From NCBI GenBank assembly GCA_963666735.1, contig OY762926.1:406734-470733 (forward strand): 64,000 nucleotides of DNA, in the 5' to 3' direction. The notes beneath the pieces were generated by a model that had not been told where the DNA came from, ran no database searches, and saw only the letters and a list, made by a program, of their open reading frames with translations. The translations under genes were made by a program, and so were the position numbers. Below, in pieces: positions 14,610 to 55,954 of this stretch. Source of the stretch: Gemmatimonadota bacterium. Its GTDB lineage: Bacteria; Gemmatimonadota; Gemmatimonadetes; Palauibacterales; Palauibacteraceae. How positions within the stretch are numbered: position 1 is the first letter of the stretch; each line of letters begins with the position of its first letter.

Positions 14610-15752
14610 CTTCGGGATGTCCTTGCCGGGATCCACGAAGGGCCGGGGCACGACCGTCGCATCGCGTTCTCCGTCGGGCGTCGTCACGCTGAGGCGCGTG
14701 CCCATCTCGCCGGAGGCGGCGGGCACGAGGGCGTAGCCGATGTTCCGCCCGAGACGCGGCGAGTGGACGGCGGAAGTGACGAAGCCGATCTCCTCTCCGT
14801 CCCGGCGCACCGGCCAGCGGTCCATGTTCAGATCGAGCGGGGCGCCCGATATCTCGATTCCGGCCAGGAGCCGCCGCGGCCCCTCCTCGGCGATCCGGGC
14901 CAGCGCGTCGCGGCCGATGAAGTCGCCCGCCTGGTCGAAATCGACCTGCCAGCCGAGCCCGACCTCCCAGGGGTTCGTGTCCAGCGTCATGTCGATGCCG
15001 TAGTTGAGGATGCCGGCTTCGATGCGGCGGATGTCCGACGGACCGGTGGGTGAGATGCCCAGGTCGTGTCCCGCCTCCATCACCCGGTCCCAGAGTTCGA
15101 CCCCCCGGCTCCCGTCCCTGAGGTAGATCTCGTAGCCGACCTCGCCGCTCCACCCCGTGCGGGTCACGACCACGGGGATGCCGTCCACGTCCGTTTCGAG
15201 GAACCAGTAGTAGCGGAGCCTGAGGACGTCCTCCCCGAACAGCCGGCGCACGACCTCCTTCGACTTCGGGCCCTGCACCTGAATCGGCGACACATCCGGC
15301 TCGCAGATCTCGACATCGAGGCCGGCGTTGAGCGCGATGCCCTTCGCGTACAGCAGCACGTCGCTGTCCGCGAGCGCGAGCCAGAAATGGTTCTCGGCCA
15401 GGCGCAGCAGCACGGGGTCGTTCACGATGCCGCCGTCCTCGGCGCCGATGATCACGTATTTGCCCTGCCCGACGGCGCACTTCGACAGGTCCCTGGGCGT
15501 GAGCAGGTTCGTGAACTCGAAGGCGTCCGGCCCCGTGATCTCCACCTGCCGCTCGACGCTCACGTCCCACACCGTGACGCCGGTAAGGAGCTTCTCGTAC
15601 TCCGCGTGCAGGTCGTCGTAGCGGGTGGGGAGAAACATGTGGTTGTAGACCGTGTAGCTCCGGCATCCGTCGCGGAGGGTGGCCTCGAAGTAGGGCGAGC
15701 GGCGGAGCCGGGCCCCGCGCTGGATCAAGGCCATGTCGAAGGTCTCGGTCAT
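14604..15752 (-). CDS. Aminomethyltransferase (GcvT) family protein, DmdA-like (candidate dimethylsulfoniopropionate demethylase)
   Basis: 382 aa; 'RRSPYFEAT', 'VYNHMFLP', 'VWDVSVERQVEITG', 'NDPVLLRL...FWLALADSDVLLYAKG' resemble the DmdA clade more than canonical GcvT (from memory; unverified). Confidence 0.6.
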   Translation of the reverse strand: MTETFDMALIQRGARLRRSPYFEATLRDGCRSYTVYNHMFLPTRYDDLHAEYEKLLTGVTVWDVSVERQVEITGPDAFEFTNLLTPRDLSKCAVGQGKYVIIGAEDGGIVNDPVLLRLAENHFWLALADSDVLLYAKGIALNAGLDVEICEPDVSPIQVQGPKSKEVVRRLFGEDVLRLRYYWFLETDVDGIPVVVTRTGWSGEVGYEIYLRDGSRGVELWDRVMEAGHDLGISPTGPSDIRRIEAGILNYGIDMTLDTNPWEVGLGWQVDFDQAGDFIGRDALARIAEEGPRRLLAGIEISGAPLDLNMDRWPVRRDGEEIGFVTSAVHSPRLGRNIGYALVPAASGEMGTRLSVTTPDGERDATVVPRPFVDPGKDIPKS

Positions 15753-15957
15753 GAGGTTCCTCTCCGGTCTACAGGTTGGGTGTCACGGGACGGAATCGGT
15801 CCCGGCGAATGCCGCAGCGTAACGCCGCAGCGCAAGGTGCGCGGATCATATGCGCCGACCCGAACGGACGGCCAGTCCATGGGCTCTTGCTCGCGAACGA
15901 CGCAGCCTGTACCCGGAAGTGATGGGTAGGCCAGCTCTTGCCGTCGGGACACAAGAA

Positions 15958-16815
15958 ATGAATCCTCGCACGAACAACCTTGCCGGCGTGGACAACGTCA
16001 TCCCCCGTCCGGGGATGCTGGCCACCGTGCGGAAACGACGCGGCACAGTGACGTCGGTATCTCCGTTCGACGGCGAGACGGGACGGCTACACCTCGTTCA
16101 TCTCGAATACCGCGACGGCGGCTCACCGTCCGACGAGCGTCTGCTGTGGGAACTCGAGCCACGCAAGACCCTCCTTGAGCCGACCGCATTGCCGGACGCT
16201 TCCCGCTCCGATCCCATGCCTCCGGCCGATTTCGACGCTCTGCTACGGGCCGCGCGATGGACCGCGCTGTCGCCGTACCTGGGCCTTGACGGCAACGGTC
16301 GCGAGGAGGGCAAAGGGATAGGAGCTTTCCTTGCCCAGAACGGCGGCGAAGGCTGGTTGCTTCCCGAAACCCTTCGCTTGGCCGATTACGGACTGGGCCA
16401 TGACGACCGCGCTCAGCACCATCAGCCCGTCGCCAGCCGTCTCGGTCCACGATTCTGCGATTGGCAGCTCGCCCAGAGCGCCGAGGAGGATCGACGAGAG
16501 TGCCACCTGCATGCGCGCAACCTTCTGGGCCGGGTCGAGTACGTTCAGCTTCTCGGCCGGTTGGTCGGGCACCGCAGACGGCACGGACAGGGGCACCACG
16601 ATCTCCTCTTCAACGGGTTTACGCACGACTTGATCGGCGACACTTCGTCGATCGATGGCAAGGAGTTCGGCTACTCCGAGGCGGACCAGATTTTCGAGGA
16701 AGAAGGAGCGGCTCGGCGCGTCGCCGAAGCGGGTCCGGGCTACTCGACCGCGCCCTTCCGCAGGCCGGGTCAGACCGAGATGTTCCCAAGGTCTCAGACC
16801 GAGCCTCCCCTGTAG
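15958..16815 (+). CDS. Hypothetical protein (beta-rich N-terminal segment 'ATVRKRRGTVTSVSPFDGETGRLHLVHLEYRDG' faintly reminiscent of Tudor-like N-termini of RapA/SNF2-type proteins)
   Basis: Start 'MNPRTNN'; codon third-position GC is high throughout. Its stop is 11 nt upstream of the AlbA_2 gene (16827), which has its own RBS: an operon-like arrangement. Competing antisense ORF 16243-16626 not excluded. Confidence 0.4.
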   Translation: MNPRTNNLAGVDNVIPRPGMLATVRKRRGTVTSVSPFDGETGRLHLVHLEYRDGGSPSDERLLWELEPRKTLLEPTALPDASRSDPMPPADFDALLRAARWTALSPYLGLDGNGREEGKGIGAFLAQNGGEGWLLPETLRLADYGLGHDDRAQHHQPVASRLGPRFCDWQLAQSAEEDRRECHLHARNLLGRVEYVQLLGRLVGHRRRHGQGHHDLLFNGFTHDLIGDTSSIDGKEFGYSEADQIFEEEGAARRVAEAGPGYSTAPFRRPGQTEMFPRSQTEPPL

Positions 16816-16826
16816 AAGGCAGGACC

Positions 16827-18032
16827 ATGTTCGACACGCCCGACCAGATTTTGCGTCAGCTGAGAGCCGGAGAGGACAGCCGCGCCGAGTTCAAAGAACT
16901 CCGTTTCGGCGAACGAGGTGTGATCTCCCCGAACACGGAGGATTTGGCCGGGGAGATGGTGTCGTTCGCCAACGCGGAGGGCGGGACGATCTTCCTTGGC
17001 GTGGATGACGACGGGGACATCGTCGGCGTGCCTCGGGAGAAGTCGCAGCTCGTGGAGCAATGGGTGCTCAACGTCGCAACCCAGAACTGCGATCCGCCCC
17101 TCCGGCCGGAAGTCAGGCGGGAGGCCCTTCCGGTGCCGGGGGAGAACGGCCTGTCCATCATCCTAGTGACCGTTCCGCAGGGACTGTTTGCCCACTGTAC
17201 TGCCGGCGGCCGCTACTACGTCCGCCTCGGGTCGACCAAACGCCGTCTCACTCCCCCGGAGCTGGCCCGCCTGTTTCAGGAACGGGGCCGGGGGTATGTC
17301 TTCGACGAGCAGCAGGTCTTCTCCGGCGCGGTGGAGAATCTGGACTGGAACCGGTTGGAGGCGTTCTTCGGCCGCTCGCCGAGGATCCCATGGCTCGACC
17401 TCCTCCGGAATACGCGGGTGACCATCTGCGACCAAGGCGGCGTGGATCGGCCTACCGTTGCCGGGTTGCTCGCATTCTCGTCGGATCCGGCCGGTCTGTT
17501 GCCATCCGCGTACGTCGAGGCGGCCTGCTACGGCGGAACCCGCCTCTCATCGGATGATCTGGTGCATGCCGAGCGTCTCGCCGGTCCGGTCTCCGACCAG
17601 ATCGACGCAGGTATCGCCTTCGTCATGCACTTCATGAGCGCCGGACGTACGGCCGAGGGCATGGACGTGTACGACATCGATGTGGTAGACGAGGCCATCG
17701 TCAACGCCGTGGCCCACCGGGACTACTCCGTTTCGGGCTCGAAGATCCGCCTGTTCCTGTACGCCGACCGCTTGGAACTGTACAGCCCCGGCAAGCTGCC
17801 CAACGGACTGACGATCGAGGAGATGCCTTACCGCACCTTCACGCGCAACCAGCTTCTGGTCAGCTTTCTATCGAAGATGCGCAGCAAGCGCACCGGCCAG
17901 GTCTTCCTTGAGTCCCGAGGGGAAGGCGTGCGGAAGATCTTGGAGGACGGCGAGGCCCACGCAGGCCGCCGCCCGGAATACGAGCTGTTCGGAAACGAGC
18001 TCCGCCTGACCATTTGGGCGCTGAGGCGGTAG
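16827..18032 (+). CDS. Schlafen-like AlbA_2 (divergent AAA / AAA_4) + HATPase_c_4 (RecG-C-terminal-like) domain protein
   Basis: Trimmed to 'MFDTPDQILRQL' after RBS GAAGGCAGGA. 'AEFKELRFGE...VSFANAEGGTIFLGVDDDGDIVGV' (AlbA_2); 'DEAIVNAVAHRDYS...YADRLELYSPGKLPNGLTIEEM...RNQLLVSFLSKM' (HATPase_c_4). Confidence 0.7.
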   Translation: MFDTPDQILRQLRAGEDSRAEFKELRFGERGVISPNTEDLAGEMVSFANAEGGTIFLGVDDDGDIVGVPREKSQLVEQWVLNVATQNCDPPLRPEVRREALPVPGENGLSIILVTVPQGLFAHCTAGGRYYVRLGSTKRRLTPPELARLFQERGRGYVFDEQQVFSGAVENLDWNRLEAFFGRSPRIPWLDLLRNTRVTICDQGGVDRPTVAGLLAFSSDPAGLLPSAYVEAACYGGTRLSSDDLVHAERLAGPVSDQIDAGIAFVMHFMSAGRTAEGMDVYDIDVVDEAIVNAVAHRDYSVSGSKIRLFLYADRLELYSPGKLPNGLTIEEMPYRTFTRNQLLVSFLSKMRSKRTGQVFLESRGEGVRKILEDGEAHAGRRPEYELFGNELRLTIWALRR

Positions 18033-18192
18033 CCGTGGGCACGGCCGCCGTCAAGGCGAGAACGGTCACCGTTTGCGAAGGTCGACGCCGCAGCCGAGGC
18101 AGGGTCGGGGAAACGGGGTTTCGCGTGACGCTGAGATGTGGACGGGACGATTCCAGATCACCGGTTAGTATGATATGACAATCGGAGGCACG

Positions 18193-18645
18193 ATGGCGTT
18201 ACCGCAAATCAGCAAAGCCATCCGCAACGAGTTTCGAGAGGTTCTTAGCGGCCATTTTGTTCTGCGAGATATCAGCGACATCGTCACGGCTGCCGGTTTC
18301 TCGGATGACGTCACTTGGGAGGCGTGGGGCAATCGTCGCAAACTCGCTGAAGATTATTTCGCAACCCTGAACCTGGCGAGGCAACGCGATATCGCCATGC
18401 TATTGGCGGCCGTCAATAAAACAGCCGTTCGGTTAACGGCAGACGGTATCCCTGAGGGCATTAGCGATCTCATCCGACTGATGAGGGAGAATGGCTACAG
18501 CTACGAGGATGGTACCTTCACGGCAGTGCAGCAGCAGAAGGCGGTAACGGAGGAGCTAATGATGTGGTCATTGTCTACCTACAATTTCATTTGCTACGGT
18601 AGTCCCGATGCTCTCGTGTTTCGAGATGGAGTTGCCCCGCTTTGA
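18193..18645 (+). CDS. Hypothetical small protein in ~50% GC segment (probably horizontally acquired)
   Basis: GGAGGC RBS; 150 aa, no recognisable motifs. GC is about 20 points below the flanks. Its TGA stop coincides with the putative left end of the IS3 element. Confidence 0.5.
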   Translation: MALPQISKAIRNEFREVLSGHFVLRDISDIVTAAGFSDDVTWEAWGNRRKLAEDYFATLNLARQRDIAMLLAAVNKTAVRLTADGIPEGISDLIRLMRENGYSYEDGTFTAVQQQKAVTEELMMWSLSTYNFICYGSPDALVFRDGVAPL

Positions 18646-18684
18646 CGGACACCTATCCATTGGGGTCAAGCAAGGAGGTGTTCC

Positions 18685-18999
18685 ATGGCGGGCCGGAAGG
18701 GGCGGTATCCATCCGAGTACAGGGAGCGGCTGGTGGAACTGGTGAGGGGCGGGCGTAGTGCCGCGTCACTCGCCCGGAAGTTCGAGCCGTCGGAGCAGAC
18801 GATCCGGAACTGGGTCCGGCAGGCGGATGTGGACGAGGGGTTCCGTAGCGACGGGCTGACAACGGAGGCGCGCAGCGAGCTGCGGCGCCTGGAGCGGGAG
18901 AACAAGCGGCTCAGGATGGAGCGCGACATCCTAAAAAAAGCCGCGGCCTGGTTCGCGAGGGAGAGCGGATCGATCCCCGGCGGGGGTATGCGTTCATGA
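18685..18999 (+). CDS. IS3-family transposase OrfA (HTH/leucine zipper)
   Basis: 'GRYPSEYRERLVELVRGGRSAASLARKFEPSEQTIRNWVRQ' HTH; 'LRRLERENKRLRMERDILKKAAAWF' zipper plus frameshift window. Confidence 0.85.
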   Translation: MAGRKGRYPSEYRERLVELVRGGRSAASLARKFEPSEQTIRNWVRQADVDEGFRSDGLTTEARSELRRLERENKRLRMERDILKKAAAWFARESGSIPGGGMRS

Positions 19000-19844
19000 G
19001 GGCGCACCGGGCCGAGTTCCCGCTTCGGGCCATGTGCCGGGTGCTGGGTCTCTCCCCCAGCGGCTACTACGACTGGTTGAGGCGTCCTCCCTCGGACCGC
19101 GCGCGTCGGGACGCGGAACTGGAGGCGCGGATCGCGAAGATATGGACCGGCAGCGGCGAGACGTACGGCCGTCCGCGGATCCACGCGGCGCTCAGGGCCG
19201 AGGGCGAGCGGGTGGGGCAGAAGCGCGTGGGGCGGCTGATGAGGGGGCTGGAGATCGAGGGCGCGACCAGGCGGCGCTTCAAGACGGCGACGACGAAGAG
19301 GGATGCCGAGGCCCGCCCCGCGCCGGACCTGGTGGACCGTGACTTCTCGGCCTCGGGGCCCGACGAGCTGTGGGTGGCCGACATCACCTACGTCCCCACG
19401 TGGGCTGGCTGGCTGTATCTGGCCGTCGTGCTCGACGTCTGGAGCCGCCGCGTCGTCGGCTGGGCCATGGCGACGCACATGCGGACCGAGCTCGTCGAGA
19501 CCGCGCTGGCGATGGCTCTCGCAAGGCGTCGTCCCGAGGGTCGTGTCGTGCATCATTCCGACAGGGGCTCGCAGTACACCTCGCTCGCCTTCGGGGAGCG
19601 CTGCCGCGAGTCGGGCATCGCCCAGTCCATGGGCTCGGCGGGCGATGCGTACGACAACGCCATGTGCGAGAGCTTCTTCGCCACCCTCGAGTGCGAGCTG
19701 ATCTGGAAGCGCTCGTTCCGCACGGCGGACGAGGCGCGACGGGAGGTCTTCGGCTTCATCGAGGGCTTCTACAACACCCGGCGGCTGCACTCGGCACTCG
19801 GCTACGAGTCGCCGGCCGACTACGAGAGCAACCATGCGGCCTGA
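18996..19844 (+). CDS. IS3-family transposase OrfB (integrase-core DDE), translated via -1 frameshift from orfA
   Basis: 'LWVADITYVPTWAGWLYLAVVLDVWSRRVVGW' (D), 'HSDRGSQYTS' (D), 'GDAYDNAMCESFFATLECE' (E) rve-domain motifs. Confidence 0.85.
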   Translation: MRAHRAEFPLRAMCRVLGLSPSGYYDWLRRPPSDRARRDAELEARIAKIWTGSGETYGRPRIHAALRAEGERVGQKRVGRLMRGLEIEGATRRRFKTATTKRDAEARPAPDLVDRDFSASGPDELWVADITYVPTWAGWLYLAVVLDVWSRRVVGWAMATHMRTELVETALAMALARRRPEGRVVHHSDRGSQYTSLAFGERCRESGIAQSMGSAGDAYDNAMCESFFATLECELIWKRSFRTADEARREVFGFIEGFYNTRRLHSALGYESPADYESNHAA

Positions 19845-19942
19845 GGCGCACCCGCGGCGCACACCGACATCCTCTCCCGAGCGCCTGAGGGAGGCTGAAA
19901 GGAGAAGAACCGGAGGCGATCAACCACAGAAACTAACCGTCC

Positions 19943-20791
19943 GTGAAAGCGGGACAGCTCCAAGATCATACGGGTTCCAGTACATTCTCGAGGGGTCGGT
20001 TGTTCGAGTACACGAGTGAGGTGCTGAAGCTCCGGTATGAGACGGACGTGTCTTCGCTCGCCAAGCTGCCTGCTCTTATTGTCGCGGAGGCTATGCCTGA
20101 CGGGAAACCCGAGACACCCGCTTTCCTTGCACAGATTGGCGATGTCCACATTGGCGGTGACGATGTCCGGTTCCGGTTTCGACGGATCGAGACGGAGCAG
20201 TTCAGTTCTGAGGAGATATTTGAATCACGACGGTTCGACACAGGACGCTGGGAGCACTCACGGACGCACTGGGCGGTCAAGGAAGGCGATGTGCTTGAGG
20301 GGCTCTTCCTTTTTTTCGCTGATCGCGCGAGCGCGCAAGAAGCGCTGTTCCCGAGTATTGCAAAACCACGATTTGTTCGCCTCGACGATTGGCCTGCACC
20401 GGTCTTGGGACACGTCGCCGTCATGATGCCGTTCGATCGTGAGTATGACGTCGTCTATGACCGGATTCGGAAGGCTTGCGACATCCACAAACTTGACGCC
20501 GTACGAGTTGACGACATCTATGGGCCCAGTAGCATCATCGACGATGTTTTCAAACTCATTGTGCAAAGCAGATTTGTGATCAGTGATCTGACTAACAAGA
20601 ACCCAAATGTCTTATACGAAACTGGTATCGCCCACGCACGCAACAGCGAAGTCATAATGATCGTGCAGAGTGATGCGGATATACCGTTTGATCTCCGGCA
20701 TATTAGGTATATCAAATATCTCCCCAATGATGAAGGATATAGTCAACTCGAAACGGATCTGGTGAAAGCGATCGCTGCGATTGTTGAATGA
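19943..20791 (+). CDS. Hypothetical protein with C-terminal SLOG/TIR-like Rossmann domain (nucleoside 2-deoxyribosyltransferase-like); possible defence effector, N-terminus possibly truncated by IS3
   Basis: ~50% GC. C-terminal 'VAVMMPFDREYDVVYDRIRKACDIHKLDAVRVDD...IVQSRFVISDLTNKNPNVLYETGIAHARNSEVIMIV' fits the Nuc_deoxyrib_tr/SLOG pattern (D..GTafE.GyA.a.gK.vi). GTG start lies inside the putative IS3 right end. Confidence 0.5.
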   Translation: MKAGQLQDHTGSSTFSRGRLFEYTSEVLKLRYETDVSSLAKLPALIVAEAMPDGKPETPAFLAQIGDVHIGGDDVRFRFRRIETEQFSSEEIFESRRFDTGRWEHSRTHWAVKEGDVLEGLFLFFADRASAQEALFPSIAKPRFVRLDDWPAPVLGHVAVMMPFDREYDVVYDRIRKACDIHKLDAVRVDDIYGPSSIIDDVFKLIVQSRFVISDLTNKNPNVLYETGIAHARNSEVIMIVQSDADIPFDLRHIRYIKYLPNDEGYSQLETDLVKAIAAIVE

Positions 20792-20883
20792 TTGCAGTGG
20801 AGGCATCGCAGAACCGGAGGTGGCGCGGGGATACTGTGGCGGTCGAGGAGGACCGGAAGACGAGGCGGTCGTTGTGGGTGGAG

Positions 20884-22401
20884 TTACGATATGGATGGCG
20901 AGGGTTGAGTCGTGCCGCCAGGCATGCGCAGCCGCTTGCCCTCGCTTTCGGCCTCGTCGGGATCCAGGAAGGCATGGCACGCTTCCAGCTCCCGTTCCGT
21001 CTCTCGAAGCGAGGTCCAGGCGACGGCAAGGGTCCACCGCTGGGCGTAGCTGAGCATGTCGATCAAAGGCTGGGGCCGGCGGTCGGTTCGGGACAGCGCA
21101 GGGAGTGCGGCGAGGTAGTTGTTTCGGTACGCGGTCGGGATGATGATTCGCTCCTCACCGGCTGCCACGAGCTCCGCATTCATCATCACGCGCGCGACGC
21201 GTCCGTTTCCGTCCGCGAAGGGATGCACCTCGGCCACGAGGAACATCATGTAGACCGCCCGGGCAAGAGGCGACTCGAGGCTGCGATACAGAGAGAAGCC
21301 TCGCTCCAGCGTCCCTGATACCAGATCGGGGAGGACGAAGTGGGTGCCGCCGGCCTTGTTCGCAGCGTCCTTGAACTCGCCGGGGCGCATTTCGGGACGC
21401 CCTGCCATGATACGCCGGTGGCGGCTTCGCAGGAGACTCGTAAGCTCCGCTGGATCCCTCGGTGTGCGCGTCATCTCCTGTGGATCGGAGACCAAACGCC
21501 ACGTTCCGATCACATCGCGAGCATCTGCGGGTCTGCGCTGTGGAATCTCGCCGTCGAAAACGATTCGCACGGCCTCGTCGACCAGGAACTCGGTGCCCTC
21601 GACGAAGTTCGAGAAGTATGCCTCGAAGAACGCCAGCGTGGCGCGGCCCTGCCCATCCCGGTGCGGTGCGGATCGTACGGTCGGAGGATGGTCGCGGAGC
21701 GCCCGATGCAGCTTGTGAAACAATTCCATGCGGTCGGGATCGTAGGCGTTCGCCCGGCTGCGGGCCCGCGCAAGCGGTGAATCGAGTTCACTGCGGCGGG
21801 TGCCGAGGAGAGTGCCGATGAGAGCGTCGAGGCGGGCCGCCTCCGTCTCCAGACCGAGTTCGGCGGCCACGGCGCGGGCCTCGTCCCGCAGCTGCTTGAC
21901 GGCCGGTTCGCCGGAGTGACGGATAAGGCGATCGAGTGCTTCCTCAATCTGAGCCTGGGGGAGCGTGCGTGGCACCCGGCCGCCCCGGGTCCGAGACGGG
22001 CGCAGGTTCTGCAGGTAGGCCCGGGTCCTCGAGCTGAGGTATAGTCCTTCGGCGAAGGGCATATCGGATGTGATCGGTCCGGAACCGCGTCTCGGACGGA
22101 GTACGATGCCCGGCAACTCGATGGTCCTGCCGCGCTCGCTGACGAGGCATACGGAGCCATCGGACGCGGGGGCCGCCTCGAAGGCCGTGCGGTCGGCGAC
22201 CAGGGCACCTGGAAAATACCCGGCGACGATCATCCACAGGTTGCGTTTCACGATCTCCCTGGGCGCATCCTCCAGGTTCTTCGTGTAGAGGCGGGACGCG
22301 AGCTTGCGCAGCGTCCCGGCCTTCACGGCCCGCGACACTTCACCGCTGATCGCCGTATGCGACACGAAGGCTTCGGGCAGTTCGTCCAGCGTGCGGTTCA
22401 T
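20884..22401 (-). CDS. Fic/Doc-family protein (Fido domain), long form
   Basis: Start trimmed to 'MNRTLDELPEAF'. Canonical Fic motif 'HPFADGNGRVARV'. About 505 aa with a long N-terminal region. Confidence 0.8.
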   Translation of the reverse strand: MNRTLDELPEAFVSHTAISGEVSRAVKAGTLRKLASRLYTKNLEDAPREIVKRNLWMIVAGYFPGALVADRTAFEAAPASDGSVCLVSERGRTIELPGIVLRPRRGSGPITSDMPFAEGLYLSSRTRAYLQNLRPSRTRGGRVPRTLPQAQIEEALDRLIRHSGEPAVKQLRDEARAVAAELGLETEAARLDALIGTLLGTRRSELDSPLARARSRANAYDPDRMELFHKLHRALRDHPPTVRSAPHRDGQGRATLAFFEAYFSNFVEGTEFLVDEAVRIVFDGEIPQRRPADARDVIGTWRLVSDPQEMTRTPRDPAELTSLLRSRHRRIMAGRPEMRPGEFKDAANKAGGTHFVLPDLVSGTLERGFSLYRSLESPLARAVYMMFLVAEVHPFADGNGRVARVMMNAELVAAGEERIIIPTAYRNNYLAALPALSRTDRRPQPLIDMLSYAQRWTLAVAWTSLRETERELEACHAFLDPDEAESEGKRLRMPGGTTQPSPSIS

Positions 22402-22445
22402 CGAATTTTTCCGAGGATAACGATAAGAGAATCGCGCAAAACGCA

Positions 22446-22484
22446 AATTATCTTAACATAAGGAGCCCGAAATGCGAAAAAAGT
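22446..22484 (+). repeat. 39-bp low-GC direct repeat copy 1 (left flank of the 22629-24650 cassette; Fic promoter region)
   Basis: 'AATTATCTTAACATAAGGAGCCCGAAATGCGAAAAAAGT' versus copy 2 at 24711-24749, 35/39 identical. Sits in a ~40% GC stretch within a ~70% GC genome. Confidence 0.75.
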
Positions 22485-22628
22485 GCACTTATCGTTTTCC
22501 GGGAAGCTGATCCTGCGTCGCCCCTCGACCGAACACCGCACCCGAGCGAGCCCGGCCGGCGACGGTTTCACACGCCGGGAAGCGTTTCGTAGGCTGCGGG
22601 CAATCGACAACTCAACCGTCTGGCTTCC

Positions 22629-24650
22629 ATGGCCCTGAATCCCGTCGCCTACATCGAGAAGGTTGCGAAGAGTTTCCTCCGCTACCAGCTCACGGCCTAC
22701 CCCTTCTCCGACCCTCACCTCCTGGAGCAGATGCGGGAACTGCTGTCGCTGGACCACACCCGTGCCTCCCCGCTTCTCAGGGAGACCTCTGTCGGCGCGT
22801 CATCGTCGCTTGCGGGTGAGACGCTTCAAGCCATGGCGGTGTGCGATGTCGACCTAAGCCACACATCCCATATCTCCGACGACGAGGAACTGCACTTCCA
22901 GCTGGGTGTTGCGGTGTACGGCCTCGAACTCGGACAGCACAGTGGCGGGCGGGCGTACGGCTGGGGGGAGAGGTCGCTCCTCATGCGGCGAGGCGTACGC
23001 ATGCGCCTCGTCAACGTCGGTGCTTCGGAGCCGATCAGGGCAAGAGACAGCTTCGGCTATCCCGTCTGTACGATCTGCGGCCAGAGCGTGTCGCCGCTGT
23101 CATCTCAACGGCAACGTCAGAGCTTCCGCGAATCGCACCGTGATCGTTGCGGACGTGAGCCGAGGCGGGTCGGGTTCTACGCCGATATCGCGGCCGACGC
23201 GTTGTCGCTGCGCGAGTGCGTCAATGCTACCCAGGCCTACAGCGTTCTCGAGGCGTTGCGGATCGGCGCGACCCGTATCCTCGACATGCACATGGAGGAT
23301 CTGCAGATCCTCGTCATTGGCGAGATCGGACGCGACGAGGTGTTGGGTCTCCTATGGGATCCGATGCCCGGAGGGTCCGGGCTGCTCGACCGCCTGTGCG
23401 AGCGCTTCGCGGAGATCGTAGCTGTCGCCCGCGAGGTCGTAGAGGGGTGCCCGAGCGTCTGCGGGTCGTCGTGTATCGATTGTCTGCAGACCTTCCGCAA
23501 CGCGTACTACCACTCCAGCCTGGATCGGAGGGCCGCTCTGGACGCGCTCGGGGAGTGGGGAGAGCAACTCGCGTTCCGGCACGATGTCCCGCCGCGGCAA
23601 CCTGCATCCACGCCCGCCGATGATGCGGTGCCCGTCAATCTGGCCGAGAGGAAGCTGCGCCATCTCCTCCTCCGGGCGGGATTCGGGGAGGGCACGCGCG
23701 GAGAACAGATCCGGCTCGACAGCGCCCTTGGCACGACTACGCCCGACGTCATCTACCGCGACGATGATGACGATTTCTGCAAGGGCGTATGCATCTACCT
23801 CGACGGAATGAGCGCGCATCTGCACGGCAGCCCCGAGACCGCCGCGAGGGATCGGGAAATTCGCCACTGGCTACGGGGCAGCGGCTACGAAGTCCTGGAG
23901 ATTCCAGCCAACGAACTCGACGACGAGGGCGCCATGACGGGCCATTTCCGTCGCCTCGCGAACTATCTGGGCCAACCCAATCGCGGGCGAGATCTTTCCG
24001 ACGACCGGAGTTGGTTCGCGGATCCCGATCCAGCGGGGAAAACAGACGATCCAGCGGACAGCCCGCGCTTGCGCCTGGTTACCCCCACTCCCGAGAGTCG
24101 CTACCAAACATGCGTCCCGCTGGTGCCGCTGCGGGCGGCGGCGGGAGCCTTCGGCGATCCGAACGAGACACTTGACGAGTGGGACCGGGACTGGGTAGCC
24201 GCCGACACGGTTCGTCGGCTCCGGGACGGAATGTTCGTGGCTCGCGTGACCGGCCGCTCGATGGAGCCGCGTATTCCCGATGGTTCGTATTGCCTCTTCG
24301 CAAGTCCTGTAACCGGCTCGCGCCAAGGGCGCACGGTGCTGGTGATCATGCGGGACGATGTGGACCCGGAGACGGGCGCCCGGTTCACCATGAAGCGATA
24401 CCGAAGCAAGAAGATGGAAGATGAGCATGGCTGGCGACACGCCAAGATCAGCCTGGAGCCAACCAACCCGGATTTCGACCCCATCATCCTCAGAGTGGAT
24501 GACGAGGCGGCGGTGGGTGTCGTGGCGGAACTCGTTGAAGTCCTCGGTCGCGACCCCCCCGAGCCGCGATTGGGTACGGCCCCGGAGCTGATCCGACGGA
24601 TGGGGGATGACTTCGACGAGCCGCTCCCGGATTTCTCGGAGCATCAGTGA
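22629..24650 (+). CDS. Multidomain protein: DUF1998-like (DrmB/MrfB-type) N-terminal zinc module + Vsr/DUF559-like endonuclease fold + C-terminal LexA-type S24 autopeptidase
   Basis: 673 aa. N-terminus 'NPVAYIEKVAKSFLRYQLTAYPF'. Cys cluster C147/C150 ('YPVCTICGQ') and 'CPSVCGSSCIDC' (aa 274-285). aa 373-445 'DVIYRDDDDDF...VCIYLDGMSAHLHG...DREIRHWLRGSGYEVLEI'. aa 495-640 aligns to LexA/UmuD/CI: 'PLVPLRAAAGAFGDP' (Ala505-Gly506), 'GRSMEP' (Ser544), 'MKRY' (Lys589). No helicase or ATPase motifs. Confidence 0.65.
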   Translation: MALNPVAYIEKVAKSFLRYQLTAYPFSDPHLLEQMRELLSLDHTRASPLLRETSVGASSSLAGETLQAMAVCDVDLSHTSHISDDEELHFQLGVAVYGLELGQHSGGRAYGWGERSLLMRRGVRMRLVNVGASEPIRARDSFGYPVCTICGQSVSPLSSQRQRQSFRESHRDRCGREPRRVGFYADIAADALSLRECVNATQAYSVLEALRIGATRILDMHMEDLQILVIGEIGRDEVLGLLWDPMPGGSGLLDRLCERFAEIVAVAREVVEGCPSVCGSSCIDCLQTFRNAYYHSSLDRRAALDALGEWGEQLAFRHDVPPRQPASTPADDAVPVNLAERKLRHLLLRAGFGEGTRGEQIRLDSALGTTTPDVIYRDDDDDFCKGVCIYLDGMSAHLHGSPETAARDREIRHWLRGSGYEVLEIPANELDDEGAMTGHFRRLANYLGQPNRGRDLSDDRSWFADPDPAGKTDDPADSPRLRLVTPTPESRYQTCVPLVPLRAAAGAFGDPNETLDEWDRDWVAADTVRRLRDGMFVARVTGRSMEPRIPDGSYCLFASPVTGSRQGRTVLVIMRDDVDPETGARFTMKRYRSKKMEDEHGWRHAKISLEPTNPDFDPIILRVDDEAAVGVVAELVEVLGRDPPEPRLGTAPELIRRMGDDFDEPLPDFSEHQ

Positions 24651-24710
24651 GCGAACATCAAGAACCGAGATTATTCGAACGGTAAGGGTTCCGCAGGACT
24701 CGAAAATGAG

Positions 24711-24749
24711 AATTATCTCAACATAAGAAGCCCTAAACGCGAAAAAAGT
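24711..24749 (+). repeat. 39-bp low-GC direct repeat copy 2 (right flank of cassette)
   Basis: 'AATTATCTCAACATAAGAAGCCCTAAACGCGAAAAAAGT'; lies between the converging 3' ends of genes 22629-24650 and 24799-25407. Confidence 0.75.
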
Positions 24750-24798
24750 AGCTTTAGCCTGTGGCGTGACGTCAACTCCGGATTGGAATCAGGGGCTT

Positions 24799-25407
24799 CT
24801 ACCCGCCGTCCATGACTTGGGCCCACTGGCCGGGGATGCTGTTCCACTTCTCGGGCGCCGTAGCCTTGACGATCGGGGAGGGGTGAGGGGATTCCACCAG
24901 ACGCAGATCCCCTGCTTGGTCCGCCACCTTCGCCTTCGCCTTGGCGGCATTCCGGCCGACGAACACGACTGAGTCGAGCCGCGGCAAGAGTCGGATAAGC
25001 TGTGCGACGCGCTCGATCCCCGCGTTGAGTTCCATATTGGTAACCTTCAGGGTGCCGTTCCACCACGGGATCACATTCCAGAGTACGGCCTCGTAACGCG
25101 GCACCCCCGCGTCGCGCATGAACCGGAAGGTCGCCTCCGCCGTGGGGTCGTTGTTGTCCCGGCTAATGAAGCCGGATCCGCCTTCGTCGGGGCTCGTCTT
25201 GGGTCCGGGCTTCTCGAACAGGAAGAGAACCCGTGCGGCAGTGCCTCCGTCCAACGGGTCGAAGCAGGGGACAAACGTCGCCGGCTTCTCGGCCCGCAAC
25301 TCCCTTGTGAAGTCGGTCAGCGGCCGAACGTGCGGCAGGTCGAGAAGGCCTTGCCGGCGCTTACACTCCTCGGGGTTGCCGAGCGTCCGCGGCGTCGTCG
25401 GGTGCAA
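24799..25407 (-). CDS. Uracil-DNA glycosylase superfamily protein (UDG-like, unclassified family)
   Basis: 'LFLFEKPGPKTSPDEGGSGF' (motif-A-like E.PG) and C-terminal 'ESPHPSPIV' (HPSP motif-B-like). TTG start 18 nt after the aminotransferase stop, suggesting co-transcription. Confidence 0.5.
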   Translation of the reverse strand: MHPTTPRTLGNPEECKRRQGLLDLPHVRPLTDFTRELRAEKPATFVPCFDPLDGGTAARVLFLFEKPGPKTSPDEGGSGFISRDNNDPTAEATFRFMRDAGVPRYEAVLWNVIPWWNGTLKVTNMELNAGIERVAQLIRLLPRLDSVVFVGRNAAKAKAKVADQAGDLRLVESPHPSPIVKATAPEKWNSIPGQWAQVMDGG

Positions 25408-25425
25408 GCTCGCCTGTCCGATCGT

Positions 25426-26730
25426 TCAGGCGGGAATGCCGTGCTTCACCGCGTGGGTCATCGCGTCCACGAAGCGGTCCAGTTCCTCGATCGTCGTGTA
25501 GGTGGATGGGGAGATGCGAAGCCCCGTGAACTCGGCGTGGTTGATGCCGACCGTGAAGATCCGGTGCTTGTTCCACAGCCAGTTGCGGAGCGCGCTCGTG
25601 TCGATGCCCTCGACCTGGACGTTCGCGATCCCGCACGCGAAGCCCGGCTTGAGGCTCGTGTTGAGCCGCACGCGGTCGTACTCCAGGAGCTGGTCCGCCC
25701 AGTAGTTCCGGAGGTGGACGAGGCGGGCTTCCTTGCGCTCGCCGCCGACCAGCTGGTGGAAGGTGAGCGCCTCGCCGATGGCGAGGAAGTTGGCCTCGGG
25801 GTGCGTGCCGATCGCCTCGAACTTCCGGATGTCGTCGTCGCTGCTCTCGGCGGCGGCCTGCAGCGGCCAGACCTCCGGGATCTTCTCCCGCCTCACGTAG
25901 AGGAGGCCCGTACCGACTGGGGCGTGAAGCCACTTGTGCAGGCTCACCGCGTAGTTGTCACAGTTGAGATCGGAGAAGGTAAAGTCATGGTGCGCCATGG
26001 AATGTGCGCCATCGACGATGACCGGGATGTCGTAGCCGCGCGCCATCTCCACGACTTCGCGCACGGGGAGGATCTGCCCTGTGATGTTGATCATGTGGCA
26101 CATGAGGATGAGCCGCGTGCGGTCGGTGATCTGCTCCTCGAACAGGCGCACGATCTCGGCCGGATCCTCGGCGGGAATCGGGATCTTGAACTGCTTGAGG
26201 ACGATCCCCTCGCGCCGCTCGCGCTGCTTGAAGGTCGTGATCATGCGCCCGTAATCCTGCGTCGTCGTCACCACTTCGTCGCCGCGCTCGAGGTCGTATC
26301 CGTTCTGGAGGATCTGGAGACCCTCCGACGCGTTGCGCGTGATCGCGACCTCCTCCGGGTCCACGTCCCACTGGCGGGCGAGCCGGGCGCGGACGCCCTC
26401 CCGCTGCGGCTCCAGGATCTGCCACCCGTTGTAGACCGGGATCTGGTTCGCGAAGTCGAGATCCCGCTTCATTGCCTCGAGCACGTGGGCGGGCGTCGGG
26501 CTCACGCCCCCGTTGTTGAGGTTGACGAGGGAACGGTCGGTGGTGAACGCCTTCTGTATCTCGAGCCAGAATTCCTCGTCGCGCGCGATCTCCCCGGGGG
26601 AGCCGGGGGTGCGGGACAAGTCACGGGCCGCCGCCATGGCGGTGTTCCACTTCGTGGGCACGGCGGTCATGACTCCGGCTGCTGCGGCGGAGCCCCCGAG
26701 GCGGGCGAGGAATCGTCGTCGGGTGGGCAT
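25426..26730 (-). CDS. Class V aminotransferase-fold PLP enzyme (isopenicillin-N-epimerase / cysteine-desulfurase-like) with twin-arginine (TAT) signal
   Basis: Start trimmed to 'MPTRRRFLARLGGSAAAAGVMTAV' (RRxFL TAT motif). 'VIVDGAHSMAHHD...SLHKWL' PLP-lysine region typical of class V. Confidence 0.7.
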   Translation of the reverse strand: MPTRRRFLARLGGSAAAAGVMTAVPTKWNTAMAAARDLSRTPGSPGEIARDEEFWLEIQKAFTTDRSLVNLNNGGVSPTPAHVLEAMKRDLDFANQIPVYNGWQILEPQREGVRARLARQWDVDPEEVAITRNASEGLQILQNGYDLERGDEVVTTTQDYGRMITTFKQRERREGIVLKQFKIPIPAEDPAEIVRLFEEQITDRTRLILMCHMINITGQILPVREVVEMARGYDIPVIVDGAHSMAHHDFTFSDLNCDNYAVSLHKWLHAPVGTGLLYVRREKIPEVWPLQAAAESSDDDIRKFEAIGTHPEANFLAIGEALTFHQLVGGERKEARLVHLRNYWADQLLEYDRVRLNTSLKPGFACGIANVQVEGIDTSALRNWLWNKHRIFTVGINHAEFTGLRISPSTYTTIEELDRFVDAMTHAVKHGIPA

Positions 26731-26832
26731 GCGGCCTCCTGGCTGGTTCGATACCGGTCCGTCTACTGCCAAATAGACCGTTTTCGAAGCCGCGAGCAAG
26801 TCTGGCGCCCGCTGCCTCCTGGGTGCGACAGG

Positions 26833-27414
26833 TCAGCCCGTTGCCGTGATCATGGCCAGGATCGGTTCGATCGCGGCCTCCGCCAGTTCCTCGAGTTCGC
26901 GGGCCGTGCGGTTCTGGATCGGGTGCGGGATCCAGACGATGGCGGGCTCGAAGCCGAGCGAGCGCGACTGGCTGCGCGCGGCCTGCTCGAACTCGGTCGT
27001 GACGACGAAGCAGCCGGGGATCCCACGTTCATCGAGGTCTCTGAGGTCGTGCAGACCGCACGACGTGCAGGACCCTCAATCGGCTAATGCCTGCACCACC
27101 ACGTCGGCTTCCGTGGCGATCCTCTGCAGCAACTCGGTCGGCGCCCGCCGCGCGTTGGTCGGCTTGTCGGTGCGGATCGTCTCGACGCCGAGCGCGTCCA
27201 GGCGCGTCTTCACGTGGTCGAGGAACTCGTCGCTGCGCAGCTTGCCAATCCCCTGCAGCGCCACCACTCGACCCTCCAGCGACGGGGGCGGCGCACGCCG
27301 CGGACGCATCTCCGGGGCGAGTTCGGAGGTGGGATCGTGAAGGATCGTCGTTGGGGTGGCGGGGGTCGCCGGAGTCGCGGGGGCCGCCGGAGTCGCCGGG
27401 GTCGGAGCCGTCAT
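26833..27414 (-). CDS. UGSC-family selenoprotein (in-frame UGA = Sec at 27078..27076), 193 aa
   Basis: ATG (27414..27412) overlaps the upstream stop (ATGA). Translation reads '...EADVVVQALAD-U-GSCTSCGLHDLRDLDERGIPGCFVVTTEFEQ...ILAMITATG*'. The TGA sits in a 'U-G-S-C' motif; a further 80 sense codons follow before the stop at 26835..26833; SECIS-like hairpin 11 nt downstream. The track ORF 27076-28578 is an artefact stopping at the Sec codon. Confidence 0.7.
27046..27064 (-). other. SECIS-like hairpin (bacterial selenocysteine insertion element) downstream of in-frame UGA
   Basis: mRNA 5'-GUCGUGC-GGUCU-GCACGAC-3': perfect 7-bp stem, GGUCU apical loop (resembles the fdhF SECIS loop, from memory), begins 11 nt after the UGA. 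Confidence 0.6.
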
Positions 27415-28862
27415 GTCTCGATCTCTCTGGTGATGGGGTGTGAGTGCCGCCAGGCGCGGCCGCCGGGCCAGCCGGCCAGGATCGCGGAGTACAGCCCGGC
27501 CGCGCCGCCGGCCCGGGCGAGGAGCAGTCCGCCGGGCGGGAACTTGGGCACCTGGCGGCGCGTCTCCGAGTCCGGCACGCCTTCGGCCAGGCCTCCCGCG
27601 CCGCGCGCGACCTTGCTCAACGGCCGCGTCGTCGCCTCCAGCAGCGCTTCGGTGATCCGCGCCCGGCACCAGCCGGCTTCCCGGTAGATGGCGTGGTGCT
27701 CGGGCGAGAGGAGCAGCACGGCGTGCGCCCACTCGCAGATCTTCGGGTGGCAGACGGCCAGCAGGCACGCGGCGAGCGACGCGGTCAGTTCTTCGGGCGT
27801 TCGGGAGCGCTGGTCCATGATCCCCTGCACGCCCTCGCCCTGGAAGAGGGTGACGGCGCTGGCCCCGCGCGGGATGCCGCGTGACACGGAGAGCGGCTCC
27901 CACTCCTCGTCCGATTCGTCCTCCGCGAAACAGAACGTGTACTTGCTGGGCGCCCCGAAGGTCGAGCGGTCGATCTCGCCCGGGCGTCCGCCGCCGACGT
28001 TGCGCACGATGAGGTTGAGCGCCCGTCCGATGGTCGCGTTGGCACGGTTCCCCTGCCCGAGGACGTTGAGCCCCGAGTTCATCCCGATGCGGCGCGCGAT
28101 GGGACCGTTCACGATGGCGAGGGGCGCCGTGAAGCAGGTGCTGCACAGGATCCCGTGCAGCGTGAAGTCGGGGTCGAGCGCCGCCTCGAGCGCCGCGAGC
28201 ACGACCGGCATGTACTCCGGCTTGCACCCCGCGAGCACGGCGTTGATCGCCACTTTCTCCACGGTGCACTCGGCGTAGTCCGGCGGTACCGCGCCCACGA
28301 CATCGTCGGGAGCCCGGGACGTGCCCGTGAGCATGCGCAGAGTCCGCTCCGGCGTCGGCGGGACGACGGGCAGCCCGTCCGTCCACCCGCGCTCGAAGCA
28401 CGCTTCCGCGGCGTCCGCGTGCGGATCCAGAGCCACCTGCCTCGCCGCGAGGCCCGTTTCGCCGAAACGCGCGCGCAGTCGCTCCGCGGCGCCGGGTTCG
28501 ACGGACCGGGAGCCGCAGCCCGGCTGGAACTCGGGCAGTTCCGCGCCCAGATCCGGAGTTGACGTCAGGTCGCGCCATTTCGCCCGGTTCCAGCCCACCG
28601 CGCGCCCCGTCTCATTTCCACCATCGAAGCGCACGAGCGTGGGGACCGTCTCGATCCCGAGCCGGAACGAGTGCTCGAGTTGCGTGTCGTCGACGACGCC
28701 GGAAAGCGCGGCGGGGAAGTCCGGGTCGTCCTGGCTCAAGATGGCGAGACCGTCGCGGCCATCGGCGAGCCGCCCCAGTACGGGTTCGACGAGTTGGCAG
28801 GTGGGGCAGTCCCGCTTGACGACGACCACGAGACCGTCCGCCGGGAGCGGAGCGTGTTCCAT
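27411..28862 (-). CDS. Thioredoxin-like (CPTC) N-terminal domain protein with large uncharacterised C-terminal domain; first gene of the UGSC-selenoprotein operon
   Basis: 483 aa; N-terminal 'VVVVKRDCPTCQLVEPVL' thioredoxin-fold CxxC; its stop overlaps the selenoprotein start. Confidence 0.6.
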   Translation of the reverse strand: MEHAPLPADGLVVVVKRDCPTCQLVEPVLGRLADGRDGLAILSQDDPDFPAALSGVVDDTQLEHSFRLGIETVPTLVRFDGGNETGRAVGWNRAKWRDLTSTPDLGAELPEFQPGCGSRSVEPGAAERLRARFGETGLAARQVALDPHADAAEACFERGWTDGLPVVPPTPERTLRMLTGTSRAPDDVVGAVPPDYAECTVEKVAINAVLAGCKPEYMPVVLAALEAALDPDFTLHGILCSTCFTAPLAIVNGPIARRIGMNSGLNVLGQGNRANATIGRALNLIVRNVGGGRPGEIDRSTFGAPSKYTFCFAEDESDEEWEPLSVSRGIPRGASAVTLFQGEGVQGIMDQRSRTPEELTASLAACLLAVCHPKICEWAHAVLLLSPEHHAIYREAGWCRARITEALLEATTRPLSKVARGAGGLAEGVPDSETRRQVPKFPPGGLLLARAGGAAGLYSAILAGWPGGRAWRHSHPITREIET

Positions 28863-29787: not shown

Positions 29788-31509
29788 ATGAACCGAACCG
29801 CACTCGCGCGCCGGCTGGCGGGCGGGGTGGTCCCGGGCCTGCTCCTCGCGTCGCTGTCCGGCCTCGCCGCTCCCGCGGCCGCCGACGCGCAGTACATGCC
29901 GAGCCAGACCCCGGTGCCTCCCCCGTTCTTCGCGCTCCGGAACGCGCGCATCGTGACCGGCACGGGAGCCGTGATCGAGAACGGCACCGTCGTCATCGCC
30001 AACGGCCTCATCGAAGCCGTCGGGGCCGACGTCGACATCCCCGGCGAGGCCTGGGTCATCGACGTTACGGATCTCACCGTTTACCCCGGCCTCTTCGACG
30101 GCCTGTCGCAGGTGGGACTGGAGACGGAGGGCGGGGATGGGCCCGGCGCCGGTGGAGGCGCGGGCGGGAATCCCTTCGCCTTCCTCGTGGCGCAGGGGAA
30201 CCAGCCTCGCACGGTGAGTCCCGAGGATCGCCCGGCGACGAACTCCTGGTTTAACGCCGCGGACATGTTGAACTCCGATGCGGACGCGATCGAGACATGG
30301 CGCAGCGGCGGGTTCACGAACGCGCTCGTGGCGCCCGACGACGGGATCGTCACGGGACAGGGCGTCGTGGTAAACCTCGCGGGCGACGAGCAGGAGATGG
30401 TCGTGAAGGCGCCCGCCGCTCTTCGGGTAACGATGAGTGGCGCCGGCGGATTCAGGAGCTTCCCGGGTTCGCTCATGGGCGTCATCTCCTACATCCGGCA
30501 GCTCTATCTCGACGCGGAGCATGCCCGGCAGTACGAGGCGAGCTACATGGCGAACCCGAGCGGGCAGCCGCGTCCGGCCTATGACCGCGCGCTCGGCCCG
30601 GTTCAGGATGCGATCGCGGGCGGCTGGCCCACGGTCATGCCGGCGAACGAGGTGCGGCAGATCCGGCGGGCGATCAAGCTCGGGCGCGACACCGGCGCGC
30701 GGCCGGTCCTGCAGGGCGCGCACGAGGCGTATGAGCTGGCCGGCGAGATCGCGGCCGCGGGCGTCCCGGTGCTCGTCAACGTGGACTGGCCCGAGCGAAA
30801 CCGCGATGCGGACCCGGAAGCCGAGGAGTCGCTTTCGTCGCTGAAGCGCCGCGCCTACGCGCCGACGACGCCGGCCCGGCTCGAGGAGGCCGGGGCGGAA
30901 TGGGCCTTCTACAGCGGCTCGGCGAACAGCCCCCGCGCCATGATGGACAACGTGCGGACGGCGATCGAGAACGGGCTCTCGGAGGAGGCGGCGCTGGAAG
31001 CGCTCACCGCCGCCCCGGCGCGGATCTACGGCGTGGACGCGATGCTGGGCTCCGTCGAGGCGGGGAAGATCGCGAACCTCGTCGTCGCGGACGGCCCGCT
31101 GTTCGACGAGGACACCGACATTCGGATGGTGTTCGTCGATGGCCACAAGTTCGAGGAGGAGGCGCTCGAGCCGAGGCCGACCGAACCGCCGGCCGTCGAC
31201 ATGAACGGCACCTGGCTCCTCTCCCTGAACAACGATTCGCAGGAGGCGACGGCTGAACTCGAGGTGTCGGAGGACGGCACGATCTCCGGAACGATCCAGG
31301 GCGAGCGCGGCGAGCAGCAGATCACGGACGGCTGGGTGAGCGGCAACGAGTTCAGCATCACGGCCTCCGCCACGATGGGACCGGGCATGGAAGTGGAGAT
31401 CGTCTATACCGGCACGGTCGAGGGCGATTCGATCGAGGGGAACGCTTCCTTCGGCGGCATGCGCAACATGGACTTCACGGGCGCGAGGCCCGGGGGAGGT
31501 GTCCGATGA
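29788..31509 (+). CDS. Amidohydrolase-family metallohydrolase (COG1228-like), secreted, with extra C-terminal beta domain
   Basis: Signal peptide 'MNRTALARRLAGGVVPGLLLASLSGLAAPAAADA'; 'VYPGLFDG' metal-binding region; C-terminal 'NGTWLLSLNNDSQEATAELEVSEDGTISGTIQ'. Confidence 0.7.
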   Translation: MNRTALARRLAGGVVPGLLLASLSGLAAPAAADAQYMPSQTPVPPPFFALRNARIVTGTGAVIENGTVVIANGLIEAVGADVDIPGEAWVIDVTDLTVYPGLFDGLSQVGLETEGGDGPGAGGGAGGNPFAFLVAQGNQPRTVSPEDRPATNSWFNAADMLNSDADAIETWRSGGFTNALVAPDDGIVTGQGVVVNLAGDEQEMVVKAPAALRVTMSGAGGFRSFPGSLMGVISYIRQLYLDAEHARQYEASYMANPSGQPRPAYDRALGPVQDAIAGGWPTVMPANEVRQIRRAIKLGRDTGARPVLQGAHEAYELAGEIAAAGVPVLVNVDWPERNRDADPEAEESLSSLKRRAYAPTTPARLEEAGAEWAFYSGSANSPRAMMDNVRTAIENGLSEEAALEALTAAPARIYGVDAMLGSVEAGKIANLVVADGPLFDEDTDIRMVFVDGHKFEEEALEPRPTEPPAVDMNGTWLLSLNNDSQEATAELEVSEDGTISGTIQGERGEQQITDGWVSGNEFSITASATMGPGMEVEIVYTGTVEGDSIEGNASFGGMRNMDFTGARPGGGVR

Positions 31510-32930: not shown

Positions 32931-32995
32931 TGCGCGGGTCCGGGAACATCCTCGGGAACACCCTTCGTAACACTACGAACGACAGGATCGACACC

Positions 32996-55686: not shown

Positions 55687-55954
55687 CGCGGTGTCGCGGA
55701 GATCCGCGAGTCACGGAGGGTGACGTCGTCAGAGCTTCTTGAGCAGCTTCCGAATGACGATCACGGCGACGGCGATGGCGATCTTTTTCATGAGGTTTCC
55801 TCTCCCGCGCATGGCATACGCTGCAAGGTGGCGCGTCCACGCTCCGTCGAACAGTACGGGCCGCTCCCGGGTCGAGGTTTCGGGCGCTCTGGCCCGCGAC
55901 CGACCGTCGGGCAACGTTGAACGGATGATTCAGGTTCGCAGTCCAGGAGGTGTC

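Follow-up and report, generated by a model that had tools for sequence, protein, structure and literature searches.

Two 39-bp direct repeats lie on either side of a single open reading frame (ORF) in the stretch of DNA analysed here, 64,000 nucleotides of a Gemmatimonadota genome (contig OY762926.1 of assembly GCA_963666735.1; hereafter, the window). We consider it probable, at roughly 80%, that these repeats are the best-conserved cores of two paralogous 5′ control regions of Fic genes. Copy 1 would serve the intact Fic gene, and copy 2 would have belonged to a second gene, Fic′, placed in the same orientation just downstream of a UDG-like gene; in the window lineage, a deletion would have removed Fic′ and left its control region alone. 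The ORF between the repeats, a helicase gene, would thus lie between two similar sequences because it formerly lay between two Fic genes, and not because it was inserted with duplication of its target, as a sequence-only reading of this DNA had suggested. The features on which this account is built are the following.

22446–22484, minus strand: copy 1 of the 39-mer, spanning the box 1 T-run, the spacer between boxes 1 and 2, and the greater part of box 2 in the Fic 5′ region
24711–24749, minus strand: copy 2 of the 39-mer, core of a putative orphan control region of the Fic′ type
20884–22401, minus strand: Fic gene, 505 aa (Pfam Fic, 1.6e-13; family alignments)
22402–22493, minus strand: full 5′ control region preceding the intact Fic gene (position weight matrix (PWM) scans and alignments)
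22474–22493, minus strand: box 1 of the Fic region, degenerate, GATAAGTGCACTTTTTTCGC, PWM score below 5
22443–22462, minus strand: box 2 of the Fic region, 13.0 bits
22402–22421, minus strand: box 3 of the Fic region, 11.9 bits, abutting the ATG
24667–24758, minus strand: orphan three-box control region, probably of the deleted Fic′ (PWM scans; remnant in relative L004; intact Fic′ in relative L009)
24739–24758 (8.6 bits), 24708–24727 (13.7 bits) and 24667–24686 (10.6 bits), minus strand: the three boxes of the orphan region, spaced by 31 and 41 nt
22629–24650, plus strand: bracketed ORF, 673 aa, DruE-like DEAD/DEAH helicase with MZB and S24-peptidase domains, helicase core deleted

The two copies are identical at 35 of 39 positions and, compared without gaps, their likeness reaches 47 nt at 85% (22438–22484 versus 24703–24749; repeat family D11). 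A degenerate search allowing up to 3 mismatches recovered only these two copies in the 64 kb, with none expected (100 shuffles). Each has a GC content of 33% and lies in a GC-poor spacer (40% in the first 100 nt beside Fic, and 47%) within a window of 68% GC. The start of copy 1 is 45 nt from the Fic ATG (22401, minus strand), on its upstream side, and copy 2 is flanked by the stop codons of the plus-strand ORF (24650) and the UDG-like gene (24799). In all these respects the sequence-only reading was accurate, down to the coordinates and sequences of the repeats, their being the sole copies in the window and their bracketing of one ORF. A gapped alignment of the surroundings, 62% overall, extends the homology to about 100 nt. 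It reaches from the start-codon region of Fic as far as a first box just beyond the 39-mer; beyond box 1, the flanks of the two copies are unrelated. The 39-mer itself corresponds, on the minus strand, to the T-run of box 1, a spacer and box 2. Three further readings of the sequence at the copies were set aside. A 12-codon ORF (22462–22500, plus strand) lies within copy 1 with a perfect AAGGAG-N6-ATG, and it is probably due to chance, the Shine–Dalgarno sequence being AAGAAG in L001, L003 and L006 and the ATG being ACG in copy 2. An inverted repeat flanking copy 1 in the window (AACGATAAG / CTTATCGTT) is not kept in L001 or L004. No stem followed by a T-run, as in a terminator, was found at either copy, and the single scan match (22432–22446, minus strand) falls within chance expectation.

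Each control region, about 92–100 nt long, is built of three direct 20-nt boxes on the minus strand, with the family consensus CTTAATGCCCGAAAATTCGC (iterated weight matrix, 15.6 bits); box 1 and box 2 are 31 nt apart, and box 2 and box 3 are 41 nt apart. Order and spacing are kept in both regions of the window, with both intervals present at copy 2 and the 41-nt interval present at copy 1, where box 1 is degenerate. To place these boxes in a wider context, 80 metagenomic loci with Fic homologues (46–76% amino acid identity) were retrieved, and two to four direct boxes were seen in the 100 nt upstream of Fic at these loci. The usable metagenomic loci, together with L003, L004, L006 and the window, gave 64 unique upstream regions. 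Boxes were present in 61 of these, with two or more in 53 and three or more in 35. The same matrix found no box in any of 60 in-gene control segments, and on the opposite strand of the upstream regions it gave a single match in 8 of the 64. Spacings across these regions cluster at 31 nt (38 cases) and 41–42 nt (44 cases), and the last box overlaps or abuts the ATG. The pattern is retained at considerable protein distance: a homologue with only 54% protein identity (L055) reads GTTTTTTCGCAAATCGGCCTTCTTAAGT where the window reads CTTTTTTCGCATTTCGGGCTCCTTATGT. The boxes are therefore conserved, phased and tied to the start of Fic, which is the arrangement of an operator repeated at fixed positions relative to the start codon and kept across homologues. 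The three-box element of this family of Fic proteins of about 500 aa was not found in the literature searched, nor were studies of this large family, and the element may be undescribed. Elsewhere in the window, a lone strong match to the box matrix (55623–55642, plus strand; 13.9 bits; GCTAAAGCCGGTAAAGTTCC) lies about 80 nt upstream of an ORF start at 55724, with no second box nearby, and may be due to chance.

The assignment of copy 2 to a lost gene comes from the relatives. A scan of one genome per species (185,579 species genomes) with a 23-base core of the motif returned one stretch in each of two Candidatus Palauibacter (Gemmatimonadota) genomes and no other records; the same core had no match in metagenome and viral collections, and further loci were reached by looking up Fic homologues. 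The generic, REP-like (repetitive extragenic palindromic) dispersion that the sequence-only reading had named as the case against its proposal is thus not what was found, with two copies in 64 kb, the part of the source genome that could be searched, and the core confined to two Palauibacter genomes in the species scan. In every helicase-bearing relative (L001, L003 and L004), both copies are present and the gene order is UDG, copy 2, helicase, copy 1, Fic. The 88 nt after copy 2 of L004 align with the 5′ region of Fic′ in L009 (76%), and the next 141 nt match the last codons of the L009 Fic′ and a downstream vapC remnant (82%); judging from these two matches, the L004 remnant is an internally deleted Fic′. 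L009 is a helicase-free locus whose core genes are close to those of the window (aminotransferase 97% and GcvT 96.6% at the amino acid level; 93–95% in nucleotides), and there an intact Fic′ with its own three-box region stands directly after the aminotransferase gene. Its product is 76% identical to the window Fic protein, and behind it a vapC fragment is fused to the GcvT upstream region. In the window, no Fic′ coding sequence is left, the deletion starting immediately past box 3 and ending at the stop codon of the helicase. Downstream of the 39-mer, copy 2 of L004 is closer to the L009 region (66%) than copy 1 is (57%), a modest difference that does not hold for copy 2 of the window, and so the orthology argument rests on the L004 remnant. 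A pseudogene resembling vapC and split by a break in its reading frame (3343–3729) separates the Fic′ remnant of L004 from the helicase stop, its PIN domain having been assigned by eye (HHRDPFDRMLIAQA motif), and L009 keeps only the 3′ part of a vapC-like pseudogene.

The ORF between the copies tells a similar story of loss. A domain scan of 22629–24650 found the MZB and S24-peptidase domains and no helicase core, and its residues 1–51 and ~52–644 match residues 1–51 and ~1390–1988 of a 1,998-aa protein of L001 at 94%. An in-frame internal deletion has removed about 1,340 codons (~4 kb), with an 11-nt microhomology at the junction (22777–22787). In L001, L003 and L004, the helicase is full length (1,992–2,019 aa; DruE-like, PADLOC 1e-100) and carries the DEAD, Helicase_C, MZB and S24 domains. 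Set against these full-length relatives, what the sequence-only reading called a single-gene cassette is therefore a gutted gene rather than a compact mobile element. Its C-terminal part includes an S24 LexA-like peptidase domain, a fusion that is unusual for a Druantia-type helicase.

How the boxes act can be approached from their geometry and from the protein that they precede. They are most likely a DNA-level operator/promoter. The operator would overlap the Fic promoter and translation start, and a protein would probably bind it cooperatively; the likeliest candidate is Fic itself, by way of its N-terminal region, and the result would be negative autoregulation of this toxin-like enzyme. 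Intervals of 31 and 41–42 nt amount to roughly 3 and 4 turns of the helix, respectively, a phasing well suited to proteins that bind cooperatively along one face. A −10-like hexamer (TATAAT, TATGAT or TACACT, read from the alignment) follows box 2 in many members; box 2 would then lie over the −35 element and spacer, and box 3 over the region of ribosome binding and translation start, which is the layout of a repressor site. This comes nearest to another suggestion of the sequence-only reading, that both copies are sites of one regulator, although binding is putative and copy 2 now has no gene to regulate. Self-regulation by Fic is, in our judgement from sequence, evenly poised. The window Fic protein has the HPFxDGNGR motif and an SNFVEG inhibitory motif, and its family (~494–506 aa) is very large and well conserved, with more than 5,000 homologues found across phyla, often in defence islands. 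The N-terminal ~135 residues are conserved, with no domain assigned to them, and sub-threshold Pfam matches to AbiEi_4, a winged helix-turn-helix of transcriptional regulators, occurred in 7 of 36 diverse family members (best E-value 5.5e-4), the sole localized one (P0211) lying at residues 26–45, near the N-terminus. Neighbouring genes are unrelated among 53 Fic loci and none is conserved; therefore, Fic is the only protein constantly encoded in cis. We also consider, somewhat more tentatively and at less than even odds, that this solitary family as a whole carries its own three-box operator running into the start codon, bound by an N-terminal AbiEi-like domain.

Several results weigh against the account developed so far. 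Within the 39-mer, the two window copies are more alike (35/39) than copy 2 is to the Fic′ region of L009 (28/39, hand count); this closer likeness fits strong local constraint or gene conversion and is not fully explained. Fic and Fic′ may have arisen either by duplication at this site or through independent acquisition of each gene. Residues 1–105 of Fic gave no supra-threshold match to any DNA-binding family, and the AlphaFold2 model of this segment is of low confidence (predicted local distance difference test below 50). A strict sigma-70 scan found no promoter in either region, the promoter position being inferred. Other searches of the N-terminus were of a similar tenor: a PDB profile search gave spurious matches only, and Foldseek with the Fic model, poor at its N-terminus, returned Fic folds only. 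A profile search with the N-terminal domain (1.84 billion representatives) matched 962 proteins at E≤0.001, and the best 150 of these resemble Fic family members or fragments, as judged by lengths and 8 Pfam-scanned examples, with no link to a named family. Exact-protein look-ups found no record for the window helicase or the Fic product. A promoter candidate picked by hand (TTCGCA-N17-TAAGAT with TGT) was rejected at only 8 of 12 matches.

That the repeats are attL/attR sites, or a target duplication, left by the insertion of a mobilizable single-gene helicase cassette is highly improbable. Direct repeats do bracket a single ORF in the window, and in L002, L006 and L007, where Fic and a single copy of the motif stand in another genomic neighbourhood, homology to the window stops 7 nt past the 39-mer, an abrupt end that in L002 and L006 could be taken for an att junction. 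As in the attachment sites of genomic islands, two similar direct repeats bracket accessory DNA in a variable island. However, the repeats are internal to three-box regions of 100 nt common before Fic genes, homology is not restricted to a junction core, the flanks past box 1 are unrelated, and in L004 remnants of Fic′ come after copy 2. What lies between the copies varies through ordinary deletions, as in the vapC pseudogene of L004 and the 4-kb helicase deletion of the window. No empty site of the kind that the sequence-only reading proposed to look for was found in the relatives, L001, L003 and L004 having two copies and L002, L006 and L007 one copy elsewhere; in the helicase-free L009 the interval was lost with quite different end-points. 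A cognate recombinase is likewise missing from the island ORFs scanned, which include no tyrosine or serine recombinase; their only candidate is an IS3 transposase (18685–19844), outside the interval bounded by the repeats. It is extremely improbable that the repeats are dif-like Xer sites and the helicase an element integrated by XerC/D, of the IMEX type (integrative mobile element exploiting Xer). Here the attraction is TTATGTTAAGA on the minus strand of copy 1, which matches a predicted dif arm of Gemmatimonas aurantiaca, TTATGTAAACT, at 8 of 11 positions and resembles the XerD arm of the Escherichia coli dif site, TTATGTTAAAT. The matching bases simply belong to the second Fic-region box (CTTATGTTAAGATAATT), and the equivalent boxes of other phyla are not dif-like; a XerC arm (3–6 of 11, hand alignment) and the ATAA/TTAT inner palindrome are absent, and no GC skew switch occurs at the repeats within the window, skew being uninformative within 64 kb. 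An integron attC site was also rejected, with no GTTRRRY core and no long dyad symmetry on inspection of the sequence, no single-strand fold being run, no inverted repeat at the copies among the pairs listed, and no integron-integrase domain in the island ORFs scanned. Nor did we retain the single copy of L006 as a deletion hybrid of copies 2 and 1, the flank similarity having p~0.04 before multiple-test correction and other pairs being null.

Two further explanations accept the control region and differ in what it does. A cis-regulatory RNA leader, in which box 2 would pair with box 3 to hide the start codon while box 1 competes, finds examples in some homologues, such as L048, where box 2 (GAAAAUUCGG) is perfectly complementary to box 3 (CCGAAUUUUC). 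Across 22 diverse upstream regions, however, RNAalifold found no conserved pairs, Rfam gave no match at E≤1 in 19000–28000, and many members have three A-rich boxes that are unable to pair mutually; these three results are the reason for placing the action of the boxes at the DNA level. The −10-like hexamer between boxes 2 and 3 would, moreover, leave boxes 1 and 2 untranscribed in many members, and we regard the leader as very unlikely. The remaining explanation concerns copy 2 only, and is compatible with its origin as a paralogous control region: it may have been kept as a decoy operator titrating the box-binding protein, or as a promoter of an antisense RNA into the 3′ end of the helicase. 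Three boxes and their spacing survive in copy 2 with PWM scores like those of copy 1, and the orphan region persists in four genomes despite the loss of Fic′. Against this, the window and L004 have diverged more in copy 2 (8/39) than in copy 1 (4/39; hand count), the box scores decay in copy 2 of L001 (5.7 bits) and the deletions beside copy 2 differ between lineages, all of which fit neutral decay. Retention for either function is unlikely, if less so than a leader.

Among the closest known systems is CccR, a Fic toxin of Yersinia pseudotuberculosis that doubles as a transcription factor and represses its own promoter by binding two repeats 26 bp apart (PMC9755527). Both CccR and the window protein are class II Fic enzymes, with the inhibitory motif on the N-terminal side, and the negative autoregulation of CccR is mediated by boxes repeated at an interval of about 3 helical turns close to the −35/−10 elements of its own promoter. 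The two differ in that CccR relies on two inverted 10-bp repeats and a C-terminal helix-turn-helix, whereas in the window family three direct 20-nt boxes extend to the start codon and the candidate DNA-binding part is N-terminal; the shared Fic core is the only sequence relation detected. The weak AbiEi_4 matches, below the Pfam threshold, point to a second comparison, the AbiEi antitoxin of a type IV toxin–antitoxin system. Hampton and colleagues are said to have described, in 2018, an N-terminal winged helix-turn-helix of AbiEi that binds repeated sites in its own promoter cooperatively. The operators of AbiEi are reportedly inverted repeats, and its toxin a separate nucleotidyltransferase; that system has no fused Fic domain, unlike the window family, in which the Fic domain is in the same protein. 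SoFic, a single-gene anti-phage defence (PADLOC model; Millman et al., preprint 10.1101/2022.05.11.491447), is also a solitary Fic-domain protein of defence islands, and the window Fic protein matches the PADLOC model at 1.6e-14 over the Fic core. This match is restricted to core residues 254–415, and the NCBIfam SoFic equivalog gives a score of 15 bits against a cut-off of 550; therefore, the window Fic is not a SoFic orthologue.

These genes belong to a variable defence island, whose outline and edges are as follows.

15888–25425: variable defence island, with lower GC at third codon positions than the core genes (Pfam, PADLOC; end-points relative to L009)
14604–15752: GcvT, core gene at the island edge
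25426–26799: class-V aminotransferase, core gene at the island edge
24799–25407, minus strand: UDG-superfamily gene adjoining the orphan region, present in helicase-bearing relatives and absent from L009

The island comprises an AlbA_2/Schlafen ORF, the IS3 element (18685–19844), a low-GC TIR-like ORF, Fic, the deleted helicase, the orphan region and the UDG gene. In L009, where 3884–4000 corresponds to 24799–25425 of the window, there is no UDG gene and the Fic′ control region follows 27 nt after the aminotransferase stop; because it is absent from L009, the UDG gene may be island cargo rather than a core gene. On the other side of Fic, L003 and L004 carry a CapH/CapP-regulated cyclic-oligonucleotide-based antiphage signalling system (CBASS; patatin, cyclase and E2), and in the window this operon is replaced from 20921 leftwards to ~18100. 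The breakpoint at 20921 belongs to a window-specific rearrangement that exchanged the last 12 Fic codons, within which homology to L001–L004 ends. In place of the CBASS operon are a low-GC ORF (19943–20791; TIR-like, 1.4e-8), the IS3 element and a 156-aa ORF. In these comparisons, the lineages differ by ordinary deletions with differing end-points, and a precise excision is seen in none of them. Elsewhere in the window, a large plus-strand ORF contains seven tandem coding repeats of ~147 nt (45624–46576; GDxDGDGxxDIVVAN-like, with the look of FG-GAP/VCBS repeats), and three adjacent plus-strand genes (29957–33221) share similar 5′ coding segments (families D3/D4, 63–72% identical), which suggests that they are tandem paralogues.

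The repeats themselves are ordinary, being two copies of a gene control region, one of which was orphaned by gene decay in a defence island. They point to no new mechanism of cassette mobilization, and instead to a decaying defence island in a sponge-associated lineage of Gemmatimonadota (Candidatus Palauibacter), where only one Fic gene of two survives and the helicase gene that lay between them is gutted. The by-product of this analysis is a phylogenetically broad cis-element of three phased 20-nt boxes with a fixed geometry to the start codon, which serves as an annotation marker for remnants of Fic genes and as a testable handle on the silencing of a potentially toxic AMPylase. If the family does carry its own operator, bound by its own N-terminal domain, the Fic gene would be a toxin or defence module complete in itself, repressing its own expression and moving with its control region, and orphan operators such as copy 2 could act as decoys.

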